Positions 131 to 21,799 of a stretch of DNA of 42,080 nucleotides are shown here, one piece after another. Source of the stretch: Anaerolinea sp. (lineage in GTDB: Bacteria > Chloroflexota > Anaerolineae > UBA4142). The translations under genes and the position numbers were made by a program. Under the pieces are notes generated by a model. It was not told the DNA's origin, ran no database searches, and saw only the letters and a list, made by a program, of their open reading frames with translations. The DNA is taken from contig DYLA01000004.1 in the NCBI GenBank assembly GCA_020722265.1, forward strand, positions 1 through 42,080, in the 5' to 3' direction. Numbering within the stretch: the stretch's first letter is position 1; every line of letters starts with the position of its first letter.

Positions 131-1549
131 TCACCTATTCAGTCGGTATAGCCGTTCTTTGAGAGCCAGCGTTTCGCGTCGGCAATTATCATCGGTCTCG
201 ATGAGTTGTGCGATTTTGTCGTGTGCGTACATTACAGTTGTATGGTCTCTGCCGAGCGCGGCACCGATTTCTGGCAACGAGGCATCTGTTTCCTCGCGGA
301 GCAAATACATCGCCATCTGGCGCGGAGCGACGATTTCCTTGCTGCGACTACGCCCGGTGAGGTCTTGGATGTCCACATTGTAAAACTCGGCGACGGCGCT
401 CAACACTTGTTCGATAGTGATGGGCTGGTGACGGAGCATATCTTGCAGAACATTGGTCGCGAGATCGAGCGAGAGTTTTTCTTGCATCAATTGCGAGTAA
501 CCGAGGATGCGCGTCAGTGCGCCTTCGAGTTCGCGGATATTGCTCTGCACCTTGCGTGCGATGAAATCAATCACTTCGGCAGGCACTTGGGCTTGAATGG
601 CGTCTGCCTTGGTGCGCAGGATAGCGATTCGCATTTCCAGATCGGGCGGCTGGATATCGGCAATCATTCCGCCTTCAAAGCGTGAGCGCACGCGTTCCTC
701 CAGCGTTGGAATCGCGCGGGGGTGGCGATCACTGGAGAGGACGATTTGCTTGTTCGCCGAGTGCAGGTGATTGAAGGTGTGAAAGAACTCTTCCTGGGTG
801 GCTTCTTTGCCGCCGATGAATTGAACATCGTCAATCAACAGCACGTCCACTTGGCGATAGACACGGCGGAATTCTTCGGTCGTTTGGTTGCGAATCGCGT
901 TGATCAAATCGTTCGTGAACATTTCGGACGAAACGTACATTACGCGACGGTCTCTGACGCCGGGATGTTGACCGAGGGCGTGGAGAAGGTGCGTTTTGCC
1001 CAAGCCGGTGCCGCCGTAGATGAAGAGCGGATTGTACGATTCGCCGGGATGCTCGGCGACGGCGAGAGCCGCCGCGTGCGCGAGTTGATTGGACTTGCCG
1101 ACGATGAATGTCTCGAAGGTGTATTTGGGATTGAGCGGCGCGGGCGTTGGAGTTTTCAGATCGTCACTTGGAGAGAGTGGAGGCGCGGGCGCGGCTTGGG
1201 TTTCCTCCATCTCTTCCGCGGCGGGGGTGTTCTCCGGAATTTGCCACAGCGCAGGACGCGCGTCTGCCGCGCGCGCGCGTGCCAGTTCGTCGTGCGGCGC
1301 GGCGTCTTTCACGACGTAGCGCATTTCGACCGGGCGTCCCACGATGCCGGTCACCGTGCGTTGGATCGTCGTGTGCAAACGATTCTCCAACCACTCTTTG
1401 GCATATGGACTGTTGACCCCCACCGTCATCGCACCATCTTGATAGTTGATGGCGCGCGTAGGACGCACCCAGGTGTCGAAGGTTGCTCTCGTCATCTGGA
1501 GTTGCAGTTCGCCCAGCGTCGCGTGCCAAATCTCGTTTGCGTTCATCAT
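131..1549 (-). CDS. dnaA: Chromosomal replication initiator DnaA
   Basis: LNPKYTFETFIVGKSNQLA, Walker A YGGTGLGKTHL, LLIDDVQF, RSRFEGG, C-terminal GRDHTTVMYA DNA-binding motif; start moved to the ATG at 1549, downstream of GGAGGTG. Confidence 0.97.
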   Translation of the reverse strand: MMNANEIWHATLGELQLQMTRATFDTWVRPTRAINYQDGAMTVGVNSPYAKEWLENRLHTTIQRTVTGIVGRPVEMRYVVKDAAPHDELARARAADARPALWQIPENTPAAEEMEETQAAPAPPLSPSDDLKTPTPAPLNPKYTFETFIVGKSNQLAHAAALAVAEHPGESYNPLFIYGGTGLGKTHLLHALGQHPGVRDRRVMYVSSEMFTNDLINAIRNQTTEEFRRVYRQVDVLLIDDVQFIGGKEATQEEFFHTFNHLHSANKQIVLSSDRHPRAIPTLEERVRSRFEGGMIADIQPPDLEMRIAILRTKADAIQAQVPAEVIDFIARKVQSNIRELEGALTRILGYSQLMQEKLSLDLATNVLQDMLRHQPITIEQVLSAVAEFYNVDIQDLTGRSRSKEIVAPRQMAMYLLREETDASLPEIGAALGRDHTTVMYAHDKIAQLIETDDNCRRETLALKERLYRLNR

Positions 1550-1834
1550 CGAAAAAATCTCACCTCCCCACAAATCCGCGAGAGGAGGCGTCACACCGTT
1601 TCAAGGTGCGCCCATTCTAGCAGAAATTCCAGTCGCGCGCAATAGGTACACCTTAAAAAGGAGAATCACGCGCCAGGTTTTTAAGATACCGTTTCTCGCG
1701 CGGTTGAAAGCGAGATTGCCATAAATTTGTTGCGGTCCGAATATGGACAATTTATGCATGGCGTCTGAATTCGATTTTCGCGTTCACGCGTGCCACAAAC
1801 GCTAGTAGTGAATGGATGCGCGCACCACTAGAGG

Positions 1835-1898: not shown

Positions 1899-3839
1899 AT
1901 GCTCAGACGAATGCTTATCGCGCTCATTCTCGTGGCGAGCGCCCTCACGGCGGGGTTGGTGTTTCTGGCGCAGCAGACCCGCGCCCTCACCGGCGTCGTG
2001 CGTGATGGCACGACCCAACTCCCGATCGAAAACGCGTCGCTCGTCGTCGCCGGCAATCACGCGGCAACCGACGCGCTTGGCGAATATACGATTGCACTAC
2101 CGCGCGGCGAGCACATCCTCACCGCGCAAGCCGATGGATACGAGACGGCGCAGTTCCAAGTGAACGGCGACGACCTGTTCCGTCAGTCCTTCCGCCTCGA
2201 ATTATCTCTTGCGCCGAACCGCGTCAATGTGCTTTTGCTCGACGCGGAAACGCGCCAACCCCTCGCCCAAGTCCCAGTGCGCGTCGGCGAACAGATCGTC
2301 ACGACGAACGCGCAGGGCATCCTGGAAGCGCGCGGCGTCAAAGCCGGCACACCGCTCGTCGCGCAAATCCCCGGCTATGATCCGATGGCGATTGCGCTCG
2401 AGGGACAGACCAATATCGAATGGGGACTCGCGCCGAACGTGCTGAACGTCGTCGTCAGCGACAAGTACACCGGTCAGCCGATTGCGCACGCGCAGATTCA
2501 AGCTGGCAACCAATCCTCGACGAGTGACGCGCAGGGGCGCGCGCGCTTTCGCCGTGTCACTCACGGCGCGACGGTGCGTGCTTCTGCCGCGGGCTACGAA
2601 AGCGCGCGCGCGTCGTTCGGCGGAGACGATCTGCAAATCGCCTTGCGCCCCAACACACTCGACGGCACTGTGACCGATGCCACGACCGGCAAGCCGATCA
2701 GCGGCACGCTCGTCTATCTGGGCAGCGCGATCGCGACGACGAACGCGCAAGGCGCGTACCATTTCGATAACGTGCCGGCGAAAGCCGCGCTCACCTTTCG
2801 CGCGGCGGGCTATCGCAAGACCAACGTCGAGGTGAGCGGCACCACGCGCTACGATATCAAACTCGCGCCATTTCTGGTGAAAGGAATTCGCATCCCATTC
2901 GCGCTATCGTCGGAACGCGTGCACGAATTGATGGACCTGATGGGCAAGACCGAATTGAACTCTATCGTGATTGACGTGAAATCCGAGCGCGGGCGACTCG
3001 CCTGGGATTCGCAGGTGCCGCTGGCAAAGCAGATCAATGCCGCGTATGCGGAGGGCATTGATCTTGGTGAGGTGATCGCGCGTTGCCGCGCGCAGAACAT
3101 CTATTGCATTGCGCGTATGCCGGTCTTTCAGGACACACTTCTCGCGACGGCGCGCCCTGCCCAAGCGATTCGCTATCCGAACGGTGCAGTCTTTACCGAG
3201 AATGGCGGCGCCGCGTGGCTCAACCCGTACAACACCGATAATTGGAATTACGTCCTCGCGCTCGCCAAAGAAATCGTCGCGCTAGGCTTCGATGAAATTC
3301 AGTTCGATTACGTGCGCTTTCCCGGCCGTTTCGGCGCGCTCGACTTGGGCACCGAAAACTCGGAGGAAAAACGTGTCGCGGCAATCACCGGCTTTCTCGC
3401 GCGCGCCCAAAAAGAATTGCGACCCACCGGCGTTTTCATCTCGGTAGATGTGTTCGGCTTGACGACGGCAACCGATGACGATCAGCACACCGGGCAGCGT
3501 CTGCGTGACCTTGGTCCCTACGCCGATTACATTTGTCCAATGGTGTACCCGGATACCTGGGTCAATGCCACCGATTTGTTGACGCGCGGGTTGGGGATAA
3601 CCAATTGTGTCGAGGCAGTCCGCTGTCCGTACGAAGTCGTCTTCAACAGTTCCAAGCGCGCGGCAGAGAAGACGACGACGCGGGTGCGATTGTGGCTGCA
3701 GGCGTACGCGGGGCGCGGCAACTTTGGCTTGACGCAATATCGTTTGCAGAAACAAGCCGCCACCGACGCGGGAAGTTACGGCTGGATGTTCTGGAACGGC
3801 CAGGGGGTGTACGACACGAGATTGTTCGACGCGAAGTAA
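1899..3839 (+). CDS. Secreted/anchored protein: carboxypeptidase-regulatory-like beta repeats plus C-terminal putative glycoside hydrolase (DUF4015-like TIM barrel)
   Basis: N-terminal signal/TM segment; repeated GxVxDxxTGxPI..A...TxxxGxY units; NSIVIDVKSERG, GFDEIQFDYVRFP, DYICPMVYP motifs. Confidence 0.75.
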   Translation: MLRRMLIALILVASALTAGLVFLAQQTRALTGVVRDGTTQLPIENASLVVAGNHAATDALGEYTIALPRGEHILTAQADGYETAQFQVNGDDLFRQSFRLELSLAPNRVNVLLLDAETRQPLAQVPVRVGEQIVTTNAQGILEARGVKAGTPLVAQIPGYDPMAIALEGQTNIEWGLAPNVLNVVVSDKYTGQPIAHAQIQAGNQSSTSDAQGRARFRRVTHGATVRASAAGYESARASFGGDDLQIALRPNTLDGTVTDATTGKPISGTLVYLGSAIATTNAQGAYHFDNVPAKAALTFRAAGYRKTNVEVSGTTRYDIKLAPFLVKGIRIPFALSSERVHELMDLMGKTELNSIVIDVKSERGRLAWDSQVPLAKQINAAYAEGIDLGEVIARCRAQNIYCIARMPVFQDTLLATARPAQAIRYPNGAVFTENGGAAWLNPYNTDNWNYVLALAKEIVALGFDEIQFDYVRFPGRFGALDLGTENSEEKRVAAITGFLARAQKELRPTGVFISVDVFGLTTATDDDQHTGQRLRDLGPYADYICPMVYPDTWVNATDLLTRGLGITNCVEAVRCPYEVVFNSSKRAAEKTTTRVRLWLQAYAGRGNFGLTQYRLQKQAATDAGSYGWMFWNGQGVYDTRLFDAK

Positions 3840-3870
3840 AGACCAAGTGACAGGGTGAACGTTCTCTGTG

Positions 3871-4980
3871 TCACCTTGTCGCGTGACTCTTGGGTTGTGT
3901 GAGTTTCGCGATCAATTGGCGATTTGCCGCCGGAAACGCGTACTGCGTCAATTCATCCGGCACAACCCACCTCCACGCTGCGCAGCCGAGCGCGCGCGGG
4001 CGTCCGCGCACCCAGCGGCAATCGAACGCGTGCAGCGTGATGCGAAAATGCGAGTACGCGTGCCGCCGCGTTGCCCATTCCTCTCCCACCGCGATTTCGA
4101 TTCCCAATTCTTCGCGCACTTCGCGCGCGACGCACGCGGCGAGCGTCTCGCCGCGTTTTCTGTGCCCGCCCGGAAATTCCCACAAGCCGCCGAGTAGTTG
4201 GTTGTCCCTCCGCCGCGCGATCAAGAGCCGCTTGCCCTTCCAAATCACGCCGATAGCGACGTGGTGATGCGGGAGTTGGCGTTGGGCGGTTTTCGCGGGC
4301 AGTTTGGCTTGGAGTCCTAGCCGCCGCGCCGCACACGCGCGCGCGAGCGGGCACACGTCGCACGCCGGCTGGCGCGGCGCGCACACCGTTGCGCCAAGTT
4401 CCATCAAGGCTTGATTGAATTCGCCGGCGCGTCCGCGCGGCAACAGGGATTCTGCCAATTGCCACAGTTCGGTTTGTGTTCGCGCGCGCCGAGGCGCGTG
4501 CCGAATGGCAAAGACGCGGCACAGGACGCGCATCGCGTTTCCATCCACCGCTGCCGCCTCGCGATGGAACGCAATGCTCGCGATCGCGCCGGCGGTGTAG
4601 CGGCCGATGCCGGGGAGCGCCCGCAGTTCGGTGACGGTGCTGGGAATCGTGCCGTCAAAGCGCGCGACGATTTCTTGCGCCGCGCGCTGCAAGTTGCGCG
4701 CGCGCGCATAGTACCCCGCGCCTTCCCACGCTTTCAGCACATCGTCCAGCCGCGCCGATGCGAGCGCGCGCACGTTCGGAAAGCGCGCGAGGAATCGTTC
4801 ATAGTACGGGATTGCTGTGACAACCTGAGTTTGCTGCAAGAGGATTTCGGCGATCCAGACGCGATAGGGGTCGGACGCGTCGCGCCGCCAAGGGAGGTCG
4901 CGCTGGTTTGCCTCGTACCACGCGAGGAGGTGCACAGCAAACGCGCGCCGGGTCGCGCGAGCGATCTTGGTCGTCGCCAC
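3871..4980 (-). CDS. mutY: A/G-specific adenine glycosylase MutY with C-terminal Nudix domain
   Basis: RDLPWR, EILLQQTQV, GYYARARNL, HhH LPGIGRYTA, VDGN, Fe-S motif C-x6-C-x2-C-x5-C, GLWEFPGG...REVREELG. Confidence 0.95.
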   Translation of the reverse strand: MATTKIARATRRAFAVHLLAWYEANQRDLPWRRDASDPYRVWIAEILLQQTQVVTAIPYYERFLARFPNVRALASARLDDVLKAWEGAGYYARARNLQRAAQEIVARFDGTIPSTVTELRALPGIGRYTAGAIASIAFHREAAAVDGNAMRVLCRVFAIRHAPRRARTQTELWQLAESLLPRGRAGEFNQALMELGATVCAPRQPACDVCPLARACAARRLGLQAKLPAKTAQRQLPHHHVAIGVIWKGKRLLIARRRDNQLLGGLWEFPGGHRKRGETLAACVAREVREELGIEIAVGEEWATRRHAYSHFRITLHAFDCRWVRGRPRALGCAAWRWVVPDELTQYAFPAANRQLIAKLTQPKSHATR

Positions 4981-4997
4981 TGGTTACCGCCTGCCCC

Positions 4998-5534
4998 TCA
5001 TAGCCCGCCGCGCCATTCCTCGCGCAAAATCGCCAAGAGATGGATGTCGTGAAACGCCCCCTCGCGATAAAGGGCTTGGCGGCGTGTGCCCTCCCTGCGA
5101 AAGCCGGCTTTTTCGTACGCGCGCATCGCGCGCGGATTGTAATCGTACACCTCGAGTTCGACGCGGTTCAGAGCGAGTTCCTCGAAGGCAAACCGCAAGA
5201 GTGTCCGCGTCGCATCGGTCCCGTACCCCTTGCCCCAATAGTCCTTGTCGCCGATGAAAATGCCCAAGACCGCGCTCCGATTCTTCAAGTCAATGCGGTG
5301 CAAGCCGCAGTTGCCGATGAGTTTGTGCTCGGCTAGCGTGAGAATGGCGAACACCACGTTGTCTTTGGATTTGGCCAAGTTCTCGAACCACGCGGTTTCC
5401 TCTTCGAGGTTGAGGGGCGCGGGGATACCTGGTCGCAAAAAGCGCGCCGTTTCCCAATCGTTCAGCCACTTGACGTACTGGGGCAGGTACTCGCGCTGTA
5501 CGGCGGCGAGTTGAATTTTTTCTCCACGAAACAT
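4998..5534 (-). CDS. GNAT N-acetyltransferase, RimJ/RimL family
   Basis: LIGNCGL, YWGKGYGTDA acetyl-CoA motif, NPRAMRAYEKAGFRREG; SD GAGGAG. Confidence 0.9.
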   Translation of the reverse strand: MFRGEKIQLAAVQREYLPQYVKWLNDWETARFLRPGIPAPLNLEEETAWFENLAKSKDNVVFAILTLAEHKLIGNCGLHRIDLKNRSAVLGIFIGDKDYWGKGYGTDATRTLLRFAFEELALNRVELEVYDYNPRAMRAYEKAGFRREGTRRQALYREGAFHDIHLLAILREEWRGGL

Positions 5535-5551
5535 GGCTTGTCTCCTCTGCG

Positions 5552-6544
5552 CTAACGTTCATCGGGGATGAGTTGGAATGTGCCGCACCCGAAATGCGTT
5601 TGCTTGCCGATGTGAAGAATGGACGCCAGTTCGAGGTAGGGCACGAGTGCGGCCGGAATCGTCCAGAAAGTTTGCGTGCCGATCCATCGCCCGGGGAAGC
5701 CGCGCGGCGATGGTTCGAGGGTGTGTCGCTGGAGCGTGCCAGCGGGGGGGTGCGCTTGTTCCAAGGCGAGCCAGATGGCGGTCTGTTCGTCCGGGGTGAG
5801 GAGTGCCCAGACATCGGAGGGCTGGGCGCGCTTGCCCGGCAGGAACAGCGTCATTCGTTCCATCAGCGCGTCAACGAGCGTTTGCAGCGTGGGTACCTCG
5901 TTCAAATCGAAGGGGGTGAGCCAGGTCAAGCGATGAAAGGGGCGCGGTTTTTGGGGCGCGAAGGATAGTCCCTCTGCCCACTGGCTTGGCGTGACGCGCT
6001 GCTCCGAGAGCAAACGCCCCGCGCTGACGACCGGTTCCCACCGCGCCCCGCGCGCCGCGTAAATGGCCGGAATCTCAAAGCGTCCCCACACGCTGTAGGC
6101 GCGATGCCATCGCTCATCGGTGAGCGTTGTGGCGTACTCCATCGCTGGCAAAATCGTTTCGAGGAACAAGCCGTGCTCCGCACTGTCGCCCAGCAGTTTG
6201 AGTTCCCACAGAATCGTCTCACCCTCTCCGTAACTTCGTTTGGCCGGGTAGGCGAACAAGACCGATTCCAGTGGCCACGATGGCAGCGTGGGCGCGTTGT
6301 GCTCTTCGAACTTTTTCTTCTCGGTTTGCCGATCCGGCGAACGGGCGGCTGCCGCGTCCTCCCACGCGGTCAGCGCGTCGCGCCACTCGCGCGCCTGGGG
6401 CGTGGGCAGCCGGCGGACGATGAGCGTACCGAGGGTTTGGGACAATTCGAGTGGGAAATAGCGCGGCAGGTGGACGAGGGGACTGGTCACGCGCCAGACG
6501 ATGAGATAGCGGATGAGGTTAACCGGACTGATAAAATTCCACAT
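5552..6544 (-). CDS. cas6: Cas6-like crRNA-processing endoribonuclease (RAMP)
   Basis: C-terminal G-rich loop HIGKQTHFGCGTF (GxxxxxGxG), LTWLTP strand, WELKLLG, GRWIG typical of Cas6 C-terminal RRM; last gene of an overlapping operon with the Cas7 fusion. Confidence 0.8.
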   Translation of the reverse strand: MWNFISPVNLIRYLIVWRVTSPLVHLPRYFPLELSQTLGTLIVRRLPTPQAREWRDALTAWEDAAAARSPDRQTEKKKFEEHNAPTLPSWPLESVLFAYPAKRSYGEGETILWELKLLGDSAEHGLFLETILPAMEYATTLTDERWHRAYSVWGRFEIPAIYAARGARWEPVVSAGRLLSEQRVTPSQWAEGLSFAPQKPRPFHRLTWLTPFDLNEVPTLQTLVDALMERMTLFLPGKRAQPSDVWALLTPDEQTAIWLALEQAHPPAGTLQRHTLEPSPRGFPGRWIGTQTFWTIPAALVPYLELASILHIGKQTHFGCGTFQLIPDER

Positions 6545-7460
6545 AGCGGACTAGCGTGTAGAGAAGACTGACTTGGGATTTAGACCACTGGCGAATTTTC
6601 CACGCGCTCAACATATCTTTGGCTTCCTGATTCAGCAAACCGAGGAGGCGTCCCCAGTAGAATTGCGCTTCGCCGGTCGCGTCGTCGTCTGCCGTCAAGA
6701 GTTTGTAGAGGATTTTTTGTTCGTGCGGCGGAAGCATCGTGCGGAACACCGTCGCCATATCGAGCATCCGCAGGAATTCTGACGCTTCGAAGGTGAGCAC
6801 GCCTTCGCGTTCGTAATAGCGTGGGTGGAAGACATAGTGCGGCGCGGCGAAAAAGCGGACCCACAGCCGATTCATCGCCAGGCGCGCTTCGTCGTGGATG
6901 ATGCGGCAGAGGATTTCGCCCATCGTCGAGTCTTTGCCGGTCGTTGGGGGACAGATTTGAATCAACCCCCGGAGATCGCCGCCGTGATAGAGGGCGAGTT
7001 CTCGCAGCCAGGGCTGCAACTCGCGATAGTGCAATATCAGCAAGAAACGCTGGGCGTCATGAATGTACAATCCGAGCGCGCGACTCGCGCTCGCATCGGC
7101 TCGCAGCGGCTTGGGCAACTCGGTCACGTAACCCCAAATGACGACCGCGCGACGCGCCAGCGCGTACAGCCCCCAGGCATCGTCCAGGATCGTTTGACAG
7201 GTGGCGCAGTACTGATCGTTGACGCGCGCATAGACCCAGCAGCGCAGACAGGGACCGTCGAGCGCAGAGGGAGGCGCACCGAGTGGAGCAGAGAGGGGCG
7301 CAGGAGGAATCCTTTGACTGCGGACTCGCTCCTGCGTCCCTCCGATTTCCGCCGAGGCGTCACGGGGCGCTTGCCTCTTGTCACTGTTCACATAGCGCAG
7401 CGTGGCGAGCAATTCGGCGCCGTCGCGGCAGCGACGAATCCAATCAAACGGACTGTACAT
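6519..7460 (-). CDS. Putative highly truncated, catalytically dead Cas10-like large subunit
   Basis: CxxC-x10-CxxC Zn finger (CLRC...CATC), then a palm-like segment (AVVIWGYV ... LYIHDAQRFLLIL where YxGGDD would be expected) and a helical C-terminus; overlaps both neighbouring cas genes. Assignment is inferred from context and weak motif order. Confidence 0.55.
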   Translation of the reverse strand: MYSPFDWIRRCRDGAELLATLRYVNSDKRQAPRDASAEIGGTQERVRSQRIPPAPLSAPLGAPPSALDGPCLRCWVYARVNDQYCATCQTILDDAWGLYALARRAVVIWGYVTELPKPLRADASASRALGLYIHDAQRFLLILHYRELQPWLRELALYHGGDLRGLIQICPPTTGKDSTMGEILCRIIHDEARLAMNRLWVRFFAAPHYVFHPRYYEREGVLTFEASEFLRMLDMATVFRTMLPPHEQKILYKLLTADDDATGEAQFYWGRLLGLLNQEAKDMLSAWKIRQWSKSQVSLLYTLVRYVEFYQSG

Positions 7461-10400
7461 TCAACGCGGTCTGCAACTCGGAATAGTGGGCGATGACTCC
7501 GGGTTCCAGCCATTCGCTCGCGCGGAAAGGCTGGCGCCACGCGGTCTCGTCCTGCCCGGTGTAGTGTTTGCTCCAATCGATGAGGAAACTGTCTGGGAGG
7601 AGGCGCAGGCGCAGACTGCCCAAGCCCAGGTGCCGGCAGCGTCCCAATTTGTGCGCGAGGTTCGATTCGAGCACGACGCACCAGACCAAGCGCTGGAGTT
7701 CTTGCCGTTCCAGATTCCAAAAGCGAATCGTAAAGCGCGCACGCGCGCCCGGCAAAATCGCGCGCAGGTAACTGGCTTGCGCGGTGGTGGGCTGGAAATC
7801 GTTCGCGCGTTTGACGATGGGCGCGAGGGGCGCGTGGAGGAACAATCGCCACGTGTTGGCGATGCGATGCAGCGGTACGGCTTTGCCGGCTTGGTGACTC
7901 CATTGCCCGTTGGCGAACGTCCAACCCGAGTATGGATACGGCACTTGGAACCACGCGAGGTCGGGCGATTCGAACAACGCAAAGCCGAAGGCGAGACGTC
8001 CCATAATCGCGTTGTTCTGCCCCAGACCGACCCAGCCGAACAAACTGTCCACGGGATTCAAGTGGTGCAAGTCCTCGCTCGCTTTAGCGGAATCGCTGGC
8101 GATGGCGTAGAGGTGGCGCAGCATCCCCTTGAGACTGCGACTCGGCAGGGCGTAGGTGCGCGTCGCGGGACGGAGGTCCGCTTCGGCAGGCGCCATCGAG
8201 AACGCGTCCCAGCCGTTGACGGTTCCATCGGCGAGTGTAGCGCGGAACGAAGGTTCTCCGCTCTCGCGGACGTGGAGCGGTGTCAAGACCTCTGCCTCCA
8301 CTGCCAAGGTGCCGCAATAGCCACCAAAGGCGCGGTGCGAGATAAAACCTGCCATCGCGCGCGGAGGCGTCTCGGCGACCGGTGTCGGCGGGGCGAACTT
8401 GCTGAGCGCGCTCAAGCGCGCGAGTGCGTCAGTGGCGGCTTGTTGTTTGAGCGTCAGAGTTTGCCATACTCCCGCGCGCGCGAGCGGCGCGTCGCCGAAC
8501 AGGCGAGTGGTCATGCCATCGGTTTGGCTGGTGAGCCACGTGATTTCGGCGACTTGGGCTTTGACCCAGCCAAAGCCACTTGTTTTTTCGCCGCCGAGTG
8601 GAACATCGCCGCGCTGCCAATCTTGGATGAGGTGAGCGAGGAAGGCGAGCGCTTCGAGGTTGGCTTCGGAAATGTCCTGCACATCCAGTTGACATTGGAA
8701 GACGAGGGGCGCGCCGTAGGCGAAGAGGTAATCGTGCTTGGCGGTTTCGACGGGGCGCCCGGTGGCGGGGTCCATTCGCACGCCGTCCATCGAGCACCAC
8801 GTTCGTTCGGGGGCGTGGGGGTCTTGGAGGTACGCGTCGGAGAAAAAGACGGCGCCGCGTTTGCCCTGCGCGCCGAAGAGATGGTCCAGCATCTGCGTCG
8901 TGCGCGGCGATTCGCCCCAGAGGGCTTTGAGCACTTGCGTGGCGCGCTTGCGGAGCGCGCCCTTGAGGGTGCTGCCGGGGATGTAGATTTCCCACGCGGC
9001 TTGTTCTTGCGTGGAGGGCGCCCAGGCGAGCATCCGCATAAACATCGTGTCGTACGGCTTGCCGTACTCGCGCGAGACGTCGCGGTTGAACGGTCCCCCG
9101 GCGCGAAAATCAACGTGATGCGGCTGCACCAACTCTTGGCGCACGCGCGCGCGATGCGCCTGGAGGAACGCGATAAAGTTGCGGTCGTTCACGATGCTCT
9201 TGCGGAGGTTGACCGGGTGAAGCATATGTTGATAGCGCACGCGGCGGTGTTCTTCGAGGAACGTGCGCCACGCCGCGGCGGTGATCCCTTCGGGTGGCTG
9301 GTTGCGATTGTTCCATTGCGCCTCGCTGAGTTTGCCTTCGAGGAGGAGCGTTTTGATGCGCATGTGTTGTTCACGGTTGGCAATTTCCGCGTCCACCCAG
9401 GCATCGCTTTGCAGTAGTGTGATCTGCTGTTCCACTTGGAGATAGAGCCCGGGGAGAATCGGCTTGCACGCGTCCGCGAAAATCTGGGTGAGCGCGGCTT
9501 CGTTCTGAATGTTCGCTGCCACGCCTGCTTCGAGCGCGGGATCGAGTCCGAGCGCGTGTGTGAGTTCGAGCCACGCCTCGCGATTGAACTGGGGCGCGCC
9601 GCCGCGCTGGCGTTCCATCACTTCGAGAATGCGCTTTGCCATATTGGCTTTGTCGCCGAGCGCGTCTTTGAGCGCGGCTTCGGCGGCGGCTTGGCTGGGG
9701 AAGGGTTGGTCGCACAGTGGTTTCGCCGCGTCGAGCACTTTTTGTGAGAGGGGGAATTTGCCTTTGCCCAATTTGGCGAGCGCGGCGGCGCGCAGCGTCC
9801 AAGTCTCTCCCTCGCCGCCGCAGCGGTCTTGCAGCCACACCGCGAGGACGCGGGGCAAATAGTCGGTAAAACGACGCTGCCAATCTTCCGGGCTGATGAT
9901 CGGACCGCCGATGACCATTGCCAGACGCTGGCGGACGGATTCGGGGAGCGCGCGCATCGCTTCGATGAGGAGGCGTCCTTCGATGGCGGCGAACGCCGGC
10001 ACTTCGGGGTCTACTTTGCCCCAGTTCCATCCGACGAGGACGGGATTGACGGCGTTGAATGTCAGTTTGATGCGGAGATGATTCGCGCCGGTCGAGAGGG
10101 TGGGCAGCGTGGCGGGCGTGTCTAAGGGCAAGTCCATTTCGAGGCGGACGCGTCCAAGTCCCTTGCTCTTGCCTGCGCCGAACCAAAAGCGACCTTCCTT
10201 CAATTCCTGGAGCGCATAGTACAGCCGCGCCGCATTGTCCTCTTTTTGCAGTACCGCATCGTTGACCGACATTGCGAAATCGAAGGCGGCGTTGCGGAAA
10301 AGAGTCTCCATTTTGTAATTCGCGTTCGCTTCGGCTGCCCAGCGGTCTTCGTCGAGGCGGAGTCCCATCCGCAAATCGAAAAAGTGATCACGTGGGTACG

Positions 10401-10674
10401 ACTCTTTTTGCAATCGGCACTCGACGCGGGTGATCAGCCCCGCTGGCAACGGGTCGCCGTACAGACGCAACCACAGCCGGTTGAGTAAACCAACGTTCCT
10501 GCCATCGCGCGATTGCCCGATGAACGCGTCCATCAACGCCTGCGCCGTACCGGAGATTTCACCAGCCAGCGAGACGAGTTGTTGCGTTCCATCGCCGTCG
10601 CGGGTGAACAGCGTTTTGCGCGCGTTGCCACGGAAGATTGGTGTCTCGGCGATAAGTTGTCCGTGTAAAAGCAT
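7444..10674 (-). CDS. Single-chain type III effector with three fused Cas7 (Csm3-like RAMP) domains and a large helical insertion (Cas7-11-like), ~1076 aa
   Basis: Three RAMP first strands (LIAETPIFRG, FNAVNPVLVG, AEVLTPLHV), two Cas7 signatures (IPGSTLKGALR, LPSRSLKGMLR), LFG..G motifs (HLFGAQGKRGAVFFSDA, SLFGWV..MGRLAF), three G-rich loops (FGAGKSKGLG, LGGEKTSGFG, LGRCRHLGLG); ATG 10674 follows SD GGAGG. Confidence 0.9.
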   Translation of the reverse strand: MLLHGQLIAETPIFRGNARKTLFTRDGDGTQQLVSLAGEISGTAQALMDAFIGQSRDGRNVGLLNRLWLRLYGDPLPAGLITRVECRLQKESYPRDHFFDLRMGLRLDEDRWAAEANANYKMETLFRNAAFDFAMSVNDAVLQKEDNAARLYYALQELKEGRFWFGAGKSKGLGRVRLEMDLPLDTPATLPTLSTGANHLRIKLTFNAVNPVLVGWNWGKVDPEVPAFAAIEGRLLIEAMRALPESVRQRLAMVIGGPIISPEDWQRRFTDYLPRVLAVWLQDRCGGEGETWTLRAAALAKLGKGKFPLSQKVLDAAKPLCDQPFPSQAAAEAALKDALGDKANMAKRILEVMERQRGGAPQFNREAWLELTHALGLDPALEAGVAANIQNEAALTQIFADACKPILPGLYLQVEQQITLLQSDAWVDAEIANREQHMRIKTLLLEGKLSEAQWNNRNQPPEGITAAAWRTFLEEHRRVRYQHMLHPVNLRKSIVNDRNFIAFLQAHRARVRQELVQPHHVDFRAGGPFNRDVSREYGKPYDTMFMRMLAWAPSTQEQAAWEIYIPGSTLKGALRKRATQVLKALWGESPRTTQMLDHLFGAQGKRGAVFFSDAYLQDPHAPERTWCSMDGVRMDPATGRPVETAKHDYLFAYGAPLVFQCQLDVQDISEANLEALAFLAHLIQDWQRGDVPLGGEKTSGFGWVKAQVAEITWLTSQTDGMTTRLFGDAPLARAGVWQTLTLKQQAATDALARLSALSKFAPPTPVAETPPRAMAGFISHRAFGGYCGTLAVEAEVLTPLHVRESGEPSFRATLADGTVNGWDAFSMAPAEADLRPATRTYALPSRSLKGMLRHLYAIASDSAKASEDLHHLNPVDSLFGWVGLGQNNAIMGRLAFGFALFESPDLAWFQVPYPYSGWTFANGQWSHQAGKAVPLHRIANTWRLFLHAPLAPIVKRANDFQPTTAQASYLRAILPGARARFTIRFWNLERQELQRLVWCVVLESNLAHKLGRCRHLGLGSLRLRLLPDSFLIDWSKHYTGQDETAWRQPFRASEWLEPGVIAHYSELQTALNVQSV

Positions 10675-10691
10675 CTTTGCCTCCCAGTCAA

Positions 10692-10813
10692 AGCCAAACT
10701 TTCGCACCCTAGACCCAGCGATAGGGAAGAGCGGTTGAGACGCCCCGCCGGGGCGTCTTGGGCTTGAGCCTGTCCGTTGGCTGGTCCAAGCGTACAGGTG
10801 CGAAATCTTGGCT
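10692..10813 (-). other. Structured 5' leader of the cas operon (long closing stem enclosing a REP-like hairpin)
   Basis: AGCCAAGATTTCGCACC pairs with GGTGCGAAAGTTTGGCT (15 Watson-Crick pairs, 1 GU, 1 mismatch); internal perfect hairpin AGACGCCCC-GGC-GGGGCGTCT at 10738-10758. Confidence 0.5.
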
Positions 10814-10840
10814 AAGTAGATTGAACGTGCAAGCAACTCG

Positions 10841-10869
10841 ATTATACCACCTATTCCAGTACAATGCAA
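10841..10869 (-). promoter_or_regulatory. Sigma70-type promoter of the cas operon
   Basis: TTGCAT-N17-TATAAT with extended TG on the minus strand. Confidence 0.7.
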
Positions 10870-10874
10870 CAAGT

Positions 10875-10903
10875 TTGGAAAAATCGCGTGAACGCGGTAG
10901 AAT
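10875..10903 (+). promoter_or_regulatory. Divergent promoter for the oxidoreductase alpha subunit
   Basis: TTGGAA-N17-TAGAAT upstream of SD GAAAGGAG and ATG 10926. Confidence 0.55.
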
Positions 10904-10925
10904 GGTAAATGAAAGGAGAGTTTCG

Positions 10926-12050
10926 ATGCGCGAATTTATGGATGGCGCGGAGGCGATTGTGCGCGGCGCGCTGGCGGCGGGCTGCAATTTTTTCGCGGGG
11001 TATCCGATCACGCCGGCGACGCCGATCCTCTTGCGGATGCTGCGCGAGTTACCCAAGACAGGCGGCATCGGAATTCAGGGAGAAGACGAAATTGCGAGTA
11101 TCGGGATGTGCATCGGCGCGGCGATGACCGGCGCAAAAGCGATGACCGCGACGAGTGGTCCGGGCATCAGTTTGTATTCCGAGAATATCGGCATGGCGAT
11201 AATGGGCGAGGTGCCGCTGGTGATCGTGGATGTGATGCGGCTGGGTCCCGCGACCGGTGGCGCGACGACGGTGGCGCAGGGGGATGTGCAATTCTTGCGC
11301 TGGGTGACGAGCGGCGGTTTTCCGATCATCGCGTTGTGCCCCAGCAGCATTGCTGATTGTTACACGCTGACGCAGCGCGCGTTCAATCTGGCGGAGCGCT
11401 TTCGTACGCCGGTCTTTCTCGCGACCGATAAGGAGATGGTGACCGCGCAGCAGAGCGTAGAGACGGACGCGTTCCAAACGCTGCCGCGTGTCGAACGCGT
11501 GGGTGCACCAGCAGACGCCGAGTTCGTCCCGTACCATGTCAAGAAACTTGCGGATGTGCCCGCGTTCGCGCCGATTGGAGGGATGCACCTCACGCGGTTT
11601 ACCACTTCGATGCACGACGAGCGCGGGATGCTGACCAAGATTCGCGTGAACGTGAACAAGACGAGCCGGCACTTGTATCAGAAAATCGAAGCGCACTGCG
11701 ACGAGTTGGAATTCGTCACGTGGGACGCGCAGGAGGGGGCGGCGACGTTGGTCGTGAGTTACGGCATCAGTGCGCGTTCCGCGCTTGAAGCGGTGCGCTT
11801 GGCGCGCGCAACGGGGGCGCGCGTGTCATCGCTCGTCGTCCAATCGTTGTGGCCCCCGCCCGCGCGCGCGTTGCGCGTTGCCTTGCGCGGCGTCTCGCGC
11901 GTCATCGTCCCGGAGTTGAACTTGGGTCAGTATCGGTTGGAGATCGAGCGCGCGGCGTGTTCGCTCGATCCGCGCCCGCAAGTGATCGGCGTGAATCGCG
12001 TGGATGGTGAGTTGATTGCGCCGGAGGAGATCGCAGAACTAGTCGCCTAG
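10926..12050 (+). CDS. 2-oxoacid:ferredoxin oxidoreductase alpha subunit
   Basis: FFAGYPITPAT, EDEIAS, TATSGPG, RxGPATG, VPELNLGQY. Confidence 0.92.
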   Translation: MREFMDGAEAIVRGALAAGCNFFAGYPITPATPILLRMLRELPKTGGIGIQGEDEIASIGMCIGAAMTGAKAMTATSGPGISLYSENIGMAIMGEVPLVIVDVMRLGPATGGATTVAQGDVQFLRWVTSGGFPIIALCPSSIADCYTLTQRAFNLAERFRTPVFLATDKEMVTAQQSVETDAFQTLPRVERVGAPADAEFVPYHVKKLADVPAFAPIGGMHLTRFTTSMHDERGMLTKIRVNVNKTSRHLYQKIEAHCDELEFVTWDAQEGAATLVVSYGISARSALEAVRLARATGARVSSLVVQSLWPPPARALRVALRGVSRVIVPELNLGQYRLEIERAACSLDPRPQVIGVNRVDGELIAPEEIAELVA

Positions 12051-12158: not shown

Positions 12159-13007
12159 ATGCCAAAGATCGCGGTGGTCACTGACAGTGCGGCGTGTGTT
12201 CCTCCCGCATTGAGAGAAGCGCTCGATATTCATCAGGTCGCGTTCGAGTTGGTGTGGGGCGGCGTCGTCTATCGCGACGGTGTGGATATTGCGCCGGCAG
12301 AGTTCTATCGGCGTTTCCGCGCGTCGGCACCCAGTTACCCCACGACGTCGCAGCCGCCGCTGGGCGCGTTTCTCGCGTTGTACACGGAACTGGGACGAAC
12401 ACACGATGGCATCGTTTCGATTCACGTTTCGGGGGATATGACCGGCACCGTCCGGACCGCGCGGTTGGCGGCGGAGCAGAGCGGCGTGCCGGTGCGGGTG
12501 TTGGATTCGCGCACGGCGACGATAGCGGAGGGGTTTGTGGTGCTGGCGGCGGCGCGCGCGGCAACCACTGGCGCGTCGCTCGACGAGGTGGTGAGTGCGG
12601 CGGAACGCGTCATCAGCCGCGTGGATTTCTTTGCGACGCTCAAGACGCTGGAGCACATTCGGCGCGGCGGGCGGCTGGGCGAGGCGGCGGCGCTCCTCGG
12701 TAGTCAGTTGAAGATCGTGCCGGTGCTCAATCTCAAGAATGGACGCGTGAGTGTCGTTGGACTGACGCGTTCGTGGAGTCACGCGCGTCAGGAGATTGTG
12801 GATTTGGCGGTGGGGCGGCTGGGTGACAAGGCGAATGTTCACGCCTCGGTCTTTCATGGCGACGCGCCGGAGGACGCGGCGTGGCTGCGCGAGCAGTTGC
12901 TTGCGCGCGTCTCTTGCGCCGAGTTCTATGTGACCGAGTTTACGCCGGTGATGGGCGCGCACACCGGTCCGGACGTGGTGGGATTGGCGTTCTATGTGGA
13001 CGATTGA
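12159..13007 (+). CDS. DegV family fatty-acid-binding protein (FakB-like)
   Basis: IAVVTDS, PTTSQP, LEHIRRGGR, VMGAHTGP. Confidence 0.93.
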   Translation: MPKIAVVTDSAACVPPALREALDIHQVAFELVWGGVVYRDGVDIAPAEFYRRFRASAPSYPTTSQPPLGAFLALYTELGRTHDGIVSIHVSGDMTGTVRTARLAAEQSGVPVRVLDSRTATIAEGFVVLAAARAATTGASLDEVVSAAERVISRVDFFATLKTLEHIRRGGRLGEAAALLGSQLKIVPVLNLKNGRVSVVGLTRSWSHARQEIVDLAVGRLGDKANVHASVFHGDAPEDAAWLREQLLARVSCAEFYVTEFTPVMGAHTGPDVVGLAFYVDD

Positions 13008-14431: not shown

Positions 14432-14537
14432 TTTGTCCTGACAAAAAAGATTGCCGAGCCCGACGTTCTTGGCGCGGCGCGTTAACCGCCCATACTATAG
14501 CACAAATCGGTTTATAACGCAACAGGAGCAAAGTACT

Positions 14538-15860
14538 GTGACTGGAGAACCAATCGCCACCTACCGCAATCCGCAAAAACCACGCTATCCCTTTTGCCCC
14601 GGCTGTTCGCACGCGCTCGTACTCGACCACCTCAACGCCGCGCTCGTCAAACTCCAACTTGACCCGCGTAAGACGGTGATCGTCACCGACATCGGTTGCG
14701 TGGGGATGAGCGATCAATATTTCGACGTGAACGCGTTTCACGGTTTACACGGGCGCGCGGTGACGTACGCGACCGGCATCAAACTCGCCAATCCCGATCT
14801 GCGCGTCATCGCGCTGATCGGCGATGGCGGTGTGGGCATTGGTGGACATCACTTGCTCAACGCGGCGCGGCGCAACATCGGCATCACGGTGCTTGTGTTC
14901 AACAATTTGAATTTTGGAATGACCGGCGGCGAACATTCGGTCACGACGCCCTACGGCGCGATCACTTCGACGACGCGCGGTGGCAATCTGGAGCGTCCGC
15001 TCGATGTGTGCGCGACGGTCGCGGTGAATGGCGCGGCGTTCGTCTATCGCGGCACCGCGTTCGACAAGGGTTTGCCGGACCGAATCGCGGAGGCCATCGA
15101 GACACCTGGCTTTGCGCTGCTCGACATCTGGGAACTGTGCACCGCGTACTATGTGCCGAACAACAGGTTCTCGAAAAACGCGCTGTTGCAAACGATGCAG
15201 GGGTTGGATTTTCGCGTTGGCGTCCTGCAGCACGCGGACCGTCCTGAACTGGCGCGCGCGTACCGCCAAGAAATCTCCAATCCCCAATCCCCAATCGCTC
15301 CACCGCGATCCATCGAGCAAAAGTACAACAGCGCGCTCACGCAAACGACGCGCCTCATCCTCGCCGGCGCGGCGGGCGGCAAGGTGCGTTCCGCCGCGAG
15401 CGCGCTCGCCATCGGCGCGATGTACTGCGGCTTGTGGGCGACGCAGCGCGATGATTATCCAACGACAGTGATGAGCGGCTATTCGGTCTCGGAAGTGATT
15501 TTGAGCCGCGAGGAAATTTTGTATATGGGCATCGAAAAGCCGGACATTCTGGCGGTGCTGTCGCCGGAAGGGCTGTCGCAGGCGCCGCGTCAACTGCGCG
15601 CGATGGACGAATCGCAAACGGTGTACGTTGTCCCCGAACTCGCGGAGCAAGTGGTCACGCGCGCGCGGAAAATCGTCTTCGACTTGGCGCGTGTCAAGCC
15701 GGCGCGCAAATCGCTGGCGGTGATGGCGACCGCTGCCATCGTCCGCCACGCGAATTTGTACCCGCTCGACGCGTTCCGCGAGGCGATCCGCGCCGGGCAG
15801 CGCGCGGAGATCGCGGCGGAGAATTTGCAGGCGGTGGACGCGAGCGAGGCAATCCTGTAG
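14538..15860 (+). CDS. 2-oxoacid:ferredoxin oxidoreductase beta-gamma fusion
   Basis: FCPGCSH, DIGC, HGLHGRA, TPP motif GDGG...NN, GMTGGE; C-terminal gamma domain LILAGAAGG...YSVSEV; GTG start after AGGAG. Confidence 0.88.
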   Translation: MTGEPIATYRNPQKPRYPFCPGCSHALVLDHLNAALVKLQLDPRKTVIVTDIGCVGMSDQYFDVNAFHGLHGRAVTYATGIKLANPDLRVIALIGDGGVGIGGHHLLNAARRNIGITVLVFNNLNFGMTGGEHSVTTPYGAITSTTRGGNLERPLDVCATVAVNGAAFVYRGTAFDKGLPDRIAEAIETPGFALLDIWELCTAYYVPNNRFSKNALLQTMQGLDFRVGVLQHADRPELARAYRQEISNPQSPIAPPRSIEQKYNSALTQTTRLILAGAAGGKVRSAASALAIGAMYCGLWATQRDDYPTTVMSGYSVSEVILSREEILYMGIEKPDILAVLSPEGLSQAPRQLRAMDESQTVYVVPELAEQVVTRARKIVFDLARVKPARKSLAVMATAAIVRHANLYPLDAFREAIRAGQRAEIAAENLQAVDASEAIL

Positions 15861-20956: not shown

Positions 20957-21799
20957 ATGGCTAATGTCAAGATCGTCACCGACAGTCTGGCGGATATTCC
21001 TCCTGAAATTATCGAAGAATTGGACATTACTACCGTCCCGTGCGTCGTCCGCTTTGGTAGTTCCGAGTACCGCGACCGTGTTGATCTGTTTCCCCCCGAG
21101 TTCTACCACAAACTTGCGGTGAGCCATAGCTTGCCGATGACTGCCGCGCCCGGGGCAGGCGAATTCGAGCAGATTTACCGCGCGCTGGCAGAAAAGACCG
21201 ATCAGATTCTAGCGATTCACACGATTGCTTCGCTCAGCGGAATCTACAACGCATCCCGTCTCGCCGCGCAAGCGGTCCCGGATGTCCAAATCGAATTGAT
21301 TGACTCGCAGCAAGTGAGTATGTCTCTCGGCTGGCTGGTCATCCTCGCTGCGCGCGCGGCAAAAGCCGGCTACTCTCTCGCCGAGATCAAAGCGCTGGTC
21401 GAAGACGCGCGCCCGCGCGTACACATCGTCGCGATGCTAGACACGCTCAAGTACGCCGAGCGCGGCGGACGATTGTGCCAAGCGGCGGCGCTGCTCGGCA
21501 CTCTGCTCAACGTCAAACCCATCCTCTCCGCCACGCGCGGCGAAATCGTCCCCATTGGCAACGCGCGCACAGTCAAGCGCGCCCTCGAACATCTCATCGA
21601 AATCGTCCTCGCTTCCGGACCGATTCAGGAACTGGCTGTCGTGCATGCTCACGCTACCGACCTCGCCTTGTCGGTGCAAAAGACGGTTGCCCAAGCATTT
21701 CCCAACAAGCGGATTCTGTTGAGCGAAACGGGACCCGTGCTTGGCGCACACACAGGTCCCGGCGCAGTCGGAATCGCCTGGATCTCTGCCTCCGCTTGA
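20957..21799 (+). CDS. DegV family fatty-acid-binding protein (second paralog)
   Basis: KIVTDS, LSGIYN, DTLKYAERGGR, LLNVKPIL, VLGAHTGPGAVG. Confidence 0.93.
   Translation: MANVKIVTDSLADIPPEIIEELDITTVPCVVRFGSSEYRDRVDLFPPEFYHKLAVSHSLPMTAAPGAGEFEQIYRALAEKTDQILAIHTIASLSGIYNASRLAAQAVPDVQIELIDSQQVSMSLGWLVILAARAAKAGYSLAEIKALVEDARPRVHIVAMLDTLKYAERGGRLCQAAALLGTLLNVKPILSATRGEIVPIGNARTVKRALEHLIEIVLASGPIQELAVVHAHATDLALSVQKTVAQAFPNKRILLSETGPVLGAHTGPGAVGIAWISASA

Follow-up and report, generated by a model that had tools for sequence, protein, structure and literature searches.

A three-gene CRISPR effector module of type III was analysed in a 42,080-nucleotide (nt) stretch of DNA from Anaerolinea sp. (Chloroflexota; GenBank assembly GCA_020722265.1, contig DYLA01000004.1). 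This stretch, called the window here, is one entire contig of a metagenome-assembled genome (MAG) with 209 contigs, 2.68 Mb of sequence and an estimated completeness of 87.9%. The list of open reading frames (ORFs) in the window contains three successive, co-oriented frames on the minus strand, which encode proteins of 1076, 313 and 330 amino acids (aa). The three genes are:

7444..10674, minus strand: cas7-11i, type III-I gRAMP effector (1076 aa and stop; NF049957)
6519..7460, minus strand: cas10i, minimal Cas10 derivative with a four-cysteine finger (313 aa and stop; NF049958)
5552..6544, minus strand: cas6i, predicted endoribonuclease for the precursor of CRISPR RNA (pre-crRNA) (330 aa and stop; NF049959, PF10040, PADLOC)

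The longest possible first ORF covers 7444..10872 on the minus strand from a TTG codon, while the conserved ATG at 10674 gives the 1076-aa protein. This ATG was taken as the start of cas7-11i because the family model and all homologues begin there. The cas7-11i and cas10i genes overlap by 17 bp (7444-7460), cas10i and cas6i overlap by 26 bp (6519-6544), and the ATGs of cas10i and cas6i each lie within the last codons of the preceding gene. An earlier, sequence-only reading of this DNA had described three overlapping, co-oriented ORFs with overlaps of these lengths, and the ORF coordinates bear this out.

All three proteins exceed the curated NCBIfam cut-offs for their families. Cas7-11i scored 1833.1 bits against NF049957 (cut-off 800) over model positions 1-1075 of 1076, Cas10i scored 387.2 bits against NF049958 (cut-off 175) and Cas6i scored 283.3 bits against NF049959 (cut-off 160) over aa 2-214. 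The three genes are confirmed as a typical member of the already named subtype III-I and not as a new one. This subtype was defined by Makarova et al. (Nat Microbiol 2025; PMC12669027). In the passages of that paper used throughout this analysis, Cas7-11i consists of three Cas7 domains and one Cas11 domain, and III-I is said to have originated independently of III-E, from another III-D variant, and to cleave RNA probably. The same passages state that the III-I Cas10 has lost its cyclase domain and has a disrupted GGDD motif, and they give an AlphaFold3 model of Cas7-11i with Cas10i (interface predicted TM score, ipTM, 0.75). Chloroflexota, the phylum of the window's host, is one of the two phyla that they name for III-I. 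The parts of PMC13294483 consulted mention III-I in a list only.

The sequence-only reading had pointed to a resemblance to a rare subtype III-I with a Cas7-11i and a degenerate Cas10. That suggestion was correct, as seen in the family scores and in the gene order of the exemplar from Desulfonema magnum (WP_207677910/WP_207677911; locus L081), which has the same three proteins in the same order. Compared with the window, the D. magnum proteins show 59% (Cas7-11i), 44% (Cas10i) and 39% (Cas6i) identity. The D. magnum genes are gapped, with cas10i beginning about 490 nt past cas7-11i, whereas the genes of the window and of most Chloroflexota loci overlap by 17 and 26 bp.

Survey of related loci

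A scan covering a single genome from each species gave 165 stretches that code for relatives, and the locus counts given here use the best 80 of them. The flanks around these 80 loci total 740 kb; 19 loci have 5 kb or more on each side, and 24 have 3 kb or more. The Cas7-11i alignment holds the window protein and those of 78 of the 80 loci (L020 and L049 excluded), and the Cas10i alignment holds the window protein and 75 of 78 complete ORFs (L020, L046 and L049 excluded). For Cas6i, the window protein was aligned with 66 of 73 others; L011, L023, L040, L065, L073 and L086 were left out due to length or stop codons, and L049 was also left out.

The trio is present in 77 of the 80 loci, and the remaining three end at a contig edge. 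A survey of the neighbourhoods of homologs had been proposed with the earlier reading as a check on the module, and the three genes do stay together. The cas10i gene comes next after cas7-11i in 79/80 loci, and cas6i adjoins cas10i in 77/80. Even the overlaps are conserved: the 17-bp overlap between cas7-11i and cas10i was found in 68 of 79 loci, and cas10i and cas6i overlap by 26 bp in 49 of 76 loci and by 17 bp in 13 more. Full-length identity of the window's Cas7-11i to the proteins of the 80 loci, which span phyla, is 56-73%. An apparent fusion of Cas7-11i with Cas10i in L020 proved to be a run of N.

In a FastTree tree of 79 sequences, which has a midpoint root only, the window protein falls in a five-row Chloroflexota clade with a support of 98. 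Nested among the Chloroflexota rows are Pseudomonadota, in two places, a six-row clade of Desulfobacterota and 'delta' sequences, and a five-row clade of other phyla. This nesting fits horizontal spread. No relative of Cas7-11i was found in the plasmid collection, the phage collection or IMG/VR, and the window has no tRNA. In an even sample of the class, using genomes at least 85% complete, III-I was carried by 19 of 151 genomes, including the source MAG.

Two relatives of the source genome have a Cas7-11i match that is split over two or three frames (G065:C273:3243-6476 and G123:C13:26004-29202). These split copies are either frameshifted pseudogenes or assembly errors.

What is new here is the array-less, accessory-free state of the cassette across 80 species together with its conserved overlaps; the supplements of PMC12669027 may already state the lack of arrays. 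The survey leaves the classification unchanged and sharpens the question of where the guides come from.

Domains and conserved residues

Cas7-11i can be divided as follows:

10090..10674, minus strand: Cas7 domain 1, about aa 1-195 (PADLOC Csm3/Csf2 stretches at aa 104-192; the borders are approximate and drawn from sequence)
9040..10089, minus strand: insert, about aa 196-545 (about 350 aa), between Cas7 domains 1 and 2 (Cas11 domain as labelled in the literature)
8485..9039, minus strand: Cas7 domain 2, about aa 546-730 (Pfam RAMPs match at aa 563-705)
7447..8319, minus strand: Cas7 domain 3, about aa 786-1076 (PDB profile matches)

Sequence matching placed three RAMP/Cas7-like stretches at about aa 104-192, 560-717 and 790-1048, and RAMP matches in the window are confined to this ORF. 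Cas7-11i is therefore predicted to have three fused Cas7 (RAMP) domains. The three sets of RAMP/Cas7 motifs that the sequence-only reading had seen are present, and its description of a triple Cas7 fusion holds for these stretches; it had missed the insert of about 350 aa, which is the Cas11 domain in the passages of PMC12669027.

The domains were compared with each other and with known Cas7 proteins. Domain 1 aligns with domain 2 by hhalign at E 9e-4, and the G-rich loops of domain 1 (GAGKSKGLGRVRL) and of Csm3 from the same genome align with E 0.061. In a profile search, domain 2 matches the III-D Cas7-2x protein (PDB 8s9t_D, E 8.4e-10), and its IPGSTLKG motif aligns with the genome's own Csm3 (hhalign E 1.7e-4). 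Domain 3 has matches in Cas7-11e, to its C-terminal Cas7 domain (7zol_B, E 1.1e-14), and in 9wxh_D, which was deposited as a TIGR03986-family RAMP protein (E 5.2e-8). The Cas7-11i profile also matches Csm3 chains in PDB at about 5e-5. For the insert, no Pfam or other family match and no PDB match by sequence was found, and a comparison with the genome's own Csm2 gave no signal (E 0.063, 22 columns). The insert is conserved, with a mean top-residue share of 0.72 in the alignment of homologues. Its identity as a Cas11 domain is the assignment made in PMC12669027, and we use it as a literature label.

Three aspartates of Cas7-11i, D26, D542 and D823, are invariant in 79/79 aligned sequences. Each lies 10-25 residues ahead of the motif of its own domain (LAGEISG, IPGSTLKG and LPSRSLKG, respectively). 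A weak alignment (E 0.1) places D823 opposite the GGLD aspartate of Csm3 from the same genome. DiCas7-11 cuts via D429 and D654 in its Cas7.2 and Cas7.3 domains, according to the parts of PMC11089037 consulted. By position and by comparison with Csm3 and DiCas7-11, we infer that D26, D542 and D823 are candidate catalytic RNase aspartates. A text match to 'Cas7-11i' in PMC11089037 is the string 'DiCas7-11Inactive', which is a different thing.

The matches of domain 3 raise the alternative that the large protein is a diverged Cas7-11e of III-E or a Cas7x3 protein of III-D2, not a III-I effector. The similarity to 7zol_B and 9wxh_D is weak, and the models made for those families score far below their cut-offs: NF041225 (III-E gRAMP) gives 49.9 bits (cut-off 700), and TIGR03986 gives 92.2 bits (cut-off 161.35). 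The large protein is 1076 aa long and contains three RAMP stretches rather than the four of III-E, it is accompanied by Cas10i and Cas6i, and no Cas7-5/Cas5, full Cas10 or CorA was found in the window. This alternative is extremely unlikely.

Like III-E Cas7-11e (gRAMP), the window protein is one large Cas7 fusion with an internal insert behind the first Cas7 domain, of Cas11 type according to the literature. III-E is an RNA-guided RNA cutter that uses Cas7-domain aspartates, and the same is predicted for III-I. In Cas7-11e, crRNA maturation is carried out by the protein itself, by way of Cas7.1. III-E combines four Cas7 domains with INS, in solved chains of about 1600-1800 aa, and lacks Cas10 and Cas6. 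In the window, 1076 aa accommodate three Cas7 domains, Cas10 is a mini version, Cas6 is separate and there is no protease partner. In the parts of PMC13294483 consulted, the Cas7.1 domain of III-E is diverged, and Csx29 replaces Cas5/Cas10 and cleaves Csx30. With III-D2 the window shares a three-Cas7 fusion, a separate Cas6 and descent from type III-D. The same parts of PMC13294483 describe III-D2 as having Cas7-5 (with Cas5), which anchors the 5' tag, a full four-domain Cas10 that makes SAM-AMP (S-adenosylmethionine-AMP), an INS domain, and CorA and toxin-antitoxin effectors. All of these are missing from the window. By analogy, the locus may work like a shortened Cas7-11e that retains a Cas10 stump and an external Cas6.

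Cas10i has a CxxC...CxxC motif (C71, C74, C85 and C88) that is invariant in 76/76 aligned homologues, which agrees with the zinc finger noted earlier in the middle protein. No Cas10, HD or Palm match to Cas10i was found in Pfam, in PADLOC, or in PDB by sequence, and its profile had 0 matches in PDB at E up to 10. When Cas10i was aligned by hhalign with the genome's own Csm1, only the CxxC...CxxC fingers were paired, at a non-significant E of 0.27. A GGD at 160-162, a doubtful counterpart of the GGDD motif, is not conserved; no conserved GGDD-like motif was found among the aligned homologues. An exhaustive HMMER search of 1.84 billion representatives with the Cas10i profile matched 90 proteins, all of at most 349 aa except for a single longer match, which was spurious and of low complexity. 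The ceiling of 349 aa is consistent with the loss of the N-terminal half of Cas10. No sequence bridge from Cas10i to full-length Cas10 was found among these representatives, in line with the account in the passages of PMC12669027. The family match thus points to a small, extremely diverged Cas10 that is predicted to be without the N-terminal polymerase/cyclase domain. Four distant matches to the profile (P0084, P0086, P0088 and P0092; 267-300 aa, E 3.5e-8 to 5.4e-4) score 43-56 bits against NF049958, for which the cut-off is 175. These four may form a diverged branch sister to Cas10i.

It could be asked whether Cas10i, like a full Cas10 or Csx29, adds a second output to the complex, for instance by signalling, by cutting DNA or by recruiting an unlinked effector. 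Its role is otherwise unexplained, it is strictly kept beside Cas7-11i (79/80 loci), and the acidic residues D6, E16, D135, E154, E191, D197, E234, E264 and D282 occur in at least 85% of sequences. However, a protein of 313 aa with no HD or Palm match and no conserved GGD argues against such an output, as do the cyclase loss and the GGDD disruption described in PMC12669027. The surroundings of the loci argue against it as well, since no CARF, SAVED, CorA or protease gene is conserved nearby and there is no conserved fourth gene; even the most frequent flank cluster is limited to 6 of 81 loci. We regard a second output as very unlikely.

Cas6i matches Pfam PF10040 at aa 216-322 (28.3 bits, cut-off 25) and the PADLOC Cas6 model at E 3.5e-11. 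The C-terminal glycine-rich loop of Cas6, which had been reported for the last protein in the sequence-only reading, lies at G313-F323. This loop is invariant in 67 aligned sequences, and so are H124 and H317. The only PDB match to the Cas6i profile was the Cas6 6fjw (E 0.36). The NF049959 model has just 207 positions, while the family median is 336 aa, and the glycine-rich loop is outside its coverage.

Possible origin of the guides and proposed mode of action

No CRISPR-like repeats were found in the 42-kb window with TRF, a k-mer array finder or a repeat search, which gave imperfect two-copy matches only. The k-mer finder did detect an array on contig C43 of the same MAG, which served as its positive control. 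The C43 array has 71 exact copies of a 37-nt repeat ending ATTGAAAC, with unique spacers of 34-40 nt. Contig C1 encodes Cas2, Cas1, a group-II-type reverse transcriptase, a RAMP protein and two ORFs without a family, and contig C189 has a complete III-A module (Cas10/Csm1, Csm2-5, Cas6 and a CARF protein). The genome's sole Cas1 match is thus on a contig other than the window's. The sequence-only reading had stated that there are no array or adaptation genes; this is true of the contig and not of the genome, which has the C43 array and the adaptation genes on C1.

Arrays with closely similar repeat ends lie beside a similar Cas1 in three carrier genomes, and therefore the C43 array probably belongs with C1. 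Arrays within 3 mismatches of the 20-nt repeat end were found in 3 of 50 carrier genomes, next to Cas1. Contigs assembled from a DNA run over the start of C1 gave one 6750-nt contig that ends 29 nt past it, with no visible link to an array, and the search for repeat 12-mers at other contig ends gave single chance matches only. The C43 spacers have no self-match longer than 17 nt, the first 3600 nt of C43 have no match in the phage collection, and Rfam names nothing in C43 1-600. The 3' hairpin of the repeat is weak (z -1.66).

The III-A Csm of C189 shares the Cas7 (Csm3) superfamily with the window and is a possible user of the same crRNA pool. Unlike the window, it has separate Csm2-5 proteins and keeps its signalling intact, with a full 820-aa Cas10/Csm1 and a CARF protein. 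C189 matches the genome in composition.

Upstream of the reverse transcriptase-Cas1-Cas2 genes, C1 (L007) encodes a weak RAMP protein of 311 aa together with ORFs of 214 and 764 aa (2559-6622, minus strand). The 214- and 764-aa ORFs have no Pfam or NCBIfam match. The RAMP protein and the two ORFs may be an unclassified effector or Cas6-type module tied to the adaptation unit.

The window's genes are a III-I effector module, probably translationally coupled in one operon, that likely cuts RNA by means of crRNA supplied in trans. Supply in trans is the best reading of the guide source, and array-less type III modules that borrow crRNAs have been proposed for III-G in the passages of PMC12669027. 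Cas6i would cut pre-crRNA from an array elsewhere in the genome, with the 71-repeat C43 array as the candidate. In Cas7-11i, the crRNA would be bound along the three Cas7 domains, and the Cas11-like insert would face the target strand. Cas10i, a zinc-finger Cas10 remnant without cyclase or HD, would cap the complex non-enzymatically; both placements follow the AlphaFold3 model of PMC12669027. By analogy with III-E, the first Cas7 domain is a candidate for holding the crRNA's 5' tag in the absence of a Cas5 subunit. By analogy with Csm3 and Cas7-11e, complementary RNA would be cut at 6-nt spacing by D26, D542 and D823. Neither cyclic oligoadenylate nor SAM-AMP signalling would be expected and no accessory effector would be recruited, so that immunity, if any, would come from sequence-specific RNA cleavage alone. 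The binding, processing and cleavage steps are modelled on Csm, Cas7-11e and III-D2 and on the published AlphaFold3 model.

Several observations weigh against this scheme. Only binning links the window to C43, whose composition gives no guidance (correlation 0.045), and C1 deviates somewhat from the genome, with a GC content of 0.563 compared to 0.61. Of 50 carrier genomes, just 10 were found to have arrays with ATTGAAAC-ending repeats. No similarity was seen between the Cas6i profile and the other two Cas6/RAMP proteins encoded in the genome, which bears on repeat compatibility. Carriage of III-I has no clear tie to Cas1: in the class sample, Cas1 was found in 13/18 carriers and 80/132 non-carriers, and among the 40 nearest relatives, in 3/6 carriers and 18/34 non-carriers. 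Five carriers that are at least 85% complete show no Cas1, and both Cas1 and Csm1 are missing from two carriers among the nearest relatives, with a completeness of 93% and 94%. No RNA sequencing run is listed as containing the locus. No experimental study of III-I was found in the literature searched, where the classification paper alone describes the subtype; the sequence-only reading had likewise known of little functional characterisation. The co-occurrence figures, which include Cas1 in 33 of 50 carrier genomes and Csm1 in 3/6 carriers and 10/34 non-carriers among the nearest relatives, are limited by MAG incompleteness and do not settle the issue.

The flanks of the related loci bear on the same question. 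Across the 740 kb around the 80 loci, no true CRISPR array was found, and tblastn with this genome's proteins (E 1e-5) gave no Cas1, Cas2 or reverse transcriptase match; with the proteins of one genome as queries, very different Cas1 types could be missed. Six regions flagged as arrays in 5 loci were tandem or coding repeats with no unique spacers. In L084, from a Desulfobacterales MAG, a unit of about 49 nt is repeated three times at 1392-1544, about 460 nt upstream of cas7-11i. It was rejected as a canonical CRISPR, having gaps of 0-23 nt and units that are alike.

One alternative is that the module is derived from CRISPR and independent of arrays, with Cas6i making guides from other structured RNA of the host or of mobile elements, for RNA regulation or array-free defence. 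The absence of arrays and adaptation matches from all 80 flanks would fit this, as would the lack of a clear enrichment of Cas1 in carriers, the 93%- and 94%-complete carriers without Cas1 and Csm1, and the fact that the cassette always has its own Cas6. On the other hand, absence is weak evidence, since arrays and cas contigs frequently drop out of MAGs, Cas1 is present in the majority of carriers (33/50 and 13/18), and the source genome does have an array. No conserved non-coding flank was found among the loci, where flanks are common to close relatives only, and the window has no Rfam match. Borrowing of crRNAs by array-less type III modules is also an accepted pattern, as for III-G in PMC12669027. 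We consider independence from arrays unlikely. Its fullest version, equally improbable, sees the cassettes as 'guide scavengers' of three genes each, self-contained and moving horizontally, that never have arrays or adaptation genes linked to them (0 of 80 loci), that sit in some genomes apparently without Cas1 or another type III system and that, in the boldest form, load non-array RNAs. If this were true, III-I would be a CRISPR-derived, array-independent RNA-guided system.

Another possible explanation is that the effector is an orphan without usable guides in this genome, either intact and idle or decaying. No array is linked to it, C43 is tied to it by binning only, and its relatives G065 and G123 have the frame-split copies. 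Decay is hard to reconcile with three intact ORFs, a strong Shine-Dalgarno site and conserved overlaps, with 56-73% identity across phyla and many invariant residues, or with a composition that is fully adapted to the host. The operon has a GC content of 0.621 compared to 0.622 for the host, and its tetranucleotide correlation is 0.956. An orphan effector is quite unlikely, and a III-I module with guides in trans is still preferred.

At 1076 and 313 aa, compared with about 1600-1800 aa for solved Cas7-11e chains, III-I is among the smallest type III effectors. Its predicted RNA cutting without collateral signalling makes it a reasonable candidate for a compact RNA-targeting tool. The remaining interest is that III-I appears untested and that the cassette is consistently array-less. 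This locus is a concrete test case, with an intact operon, a candidate cognate array in the same MAG and three candidate catalytic aspartates.

Putative expression signals and neighbouring genes

The following features precede cas7-11i:

10841..10869, minus strand: promoter-like site TTGCAT-17 nt-TGgTATAAT with an extended -10 (direct sequence reading; about 170 nt upstream of the ATG)
10739..10757, minus strand: GC-rich 9-bp hairpin in the putative cas7-11i 5' leader (folding)
10680..10685, minus strand: Shine-Dalgarno GGGAGG, 5 nt ahead of the ATG at 10674 (direct sequence reading)

A single promoter for all three genes is plausible. The consensus promoter scan did not list the TTGCAT-17 nt-TGgTATAAT site at 10869-10841. 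The leader hairpin folds at -20.1 kcal/mol (z -2.8), and 1 of 200 shuffles folds equally well; the non-coding DNA that flanks it is not conserved in the other loci. One DNA sequencing run contains the locus and is probably its source sample.

The other large ORFs of the window are housekeeping genes. One flank of the operon has DnaA, a DUF4015 hydrolase, MutY and a GNAT acetyltransferase. The DnaA gene is complete (131-1594, minus strand; Bac_DnaA, DnaA_N and DnaA_C) and lies about 4 kb from the III-I operon, which suggests that the contig is probably at the chromosomal replication origin. The GNAT gene (4998-5534, minus strand) begins 17 bp past the cas6i stop on the same strand, with MutY next, and it may be co-transcribed with the III-I operon here. 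It is not a conserved neighbour, since a weak match was found in 1 of 80 loci.

The other flank has 2-oxoacid:ferredoxin oxidoreductase, DegV and PlsY, followed by sugar enzymes and glycosyltransferases. Two DegV-family paralogues are present (12159-13007 and 20957-21799, plus strand). The 2-oxoacid:ferredoxin oxidoreductase genes at 10758-12050 and 14451-15860 are split by DegV, PlsY and an ORF without a family.

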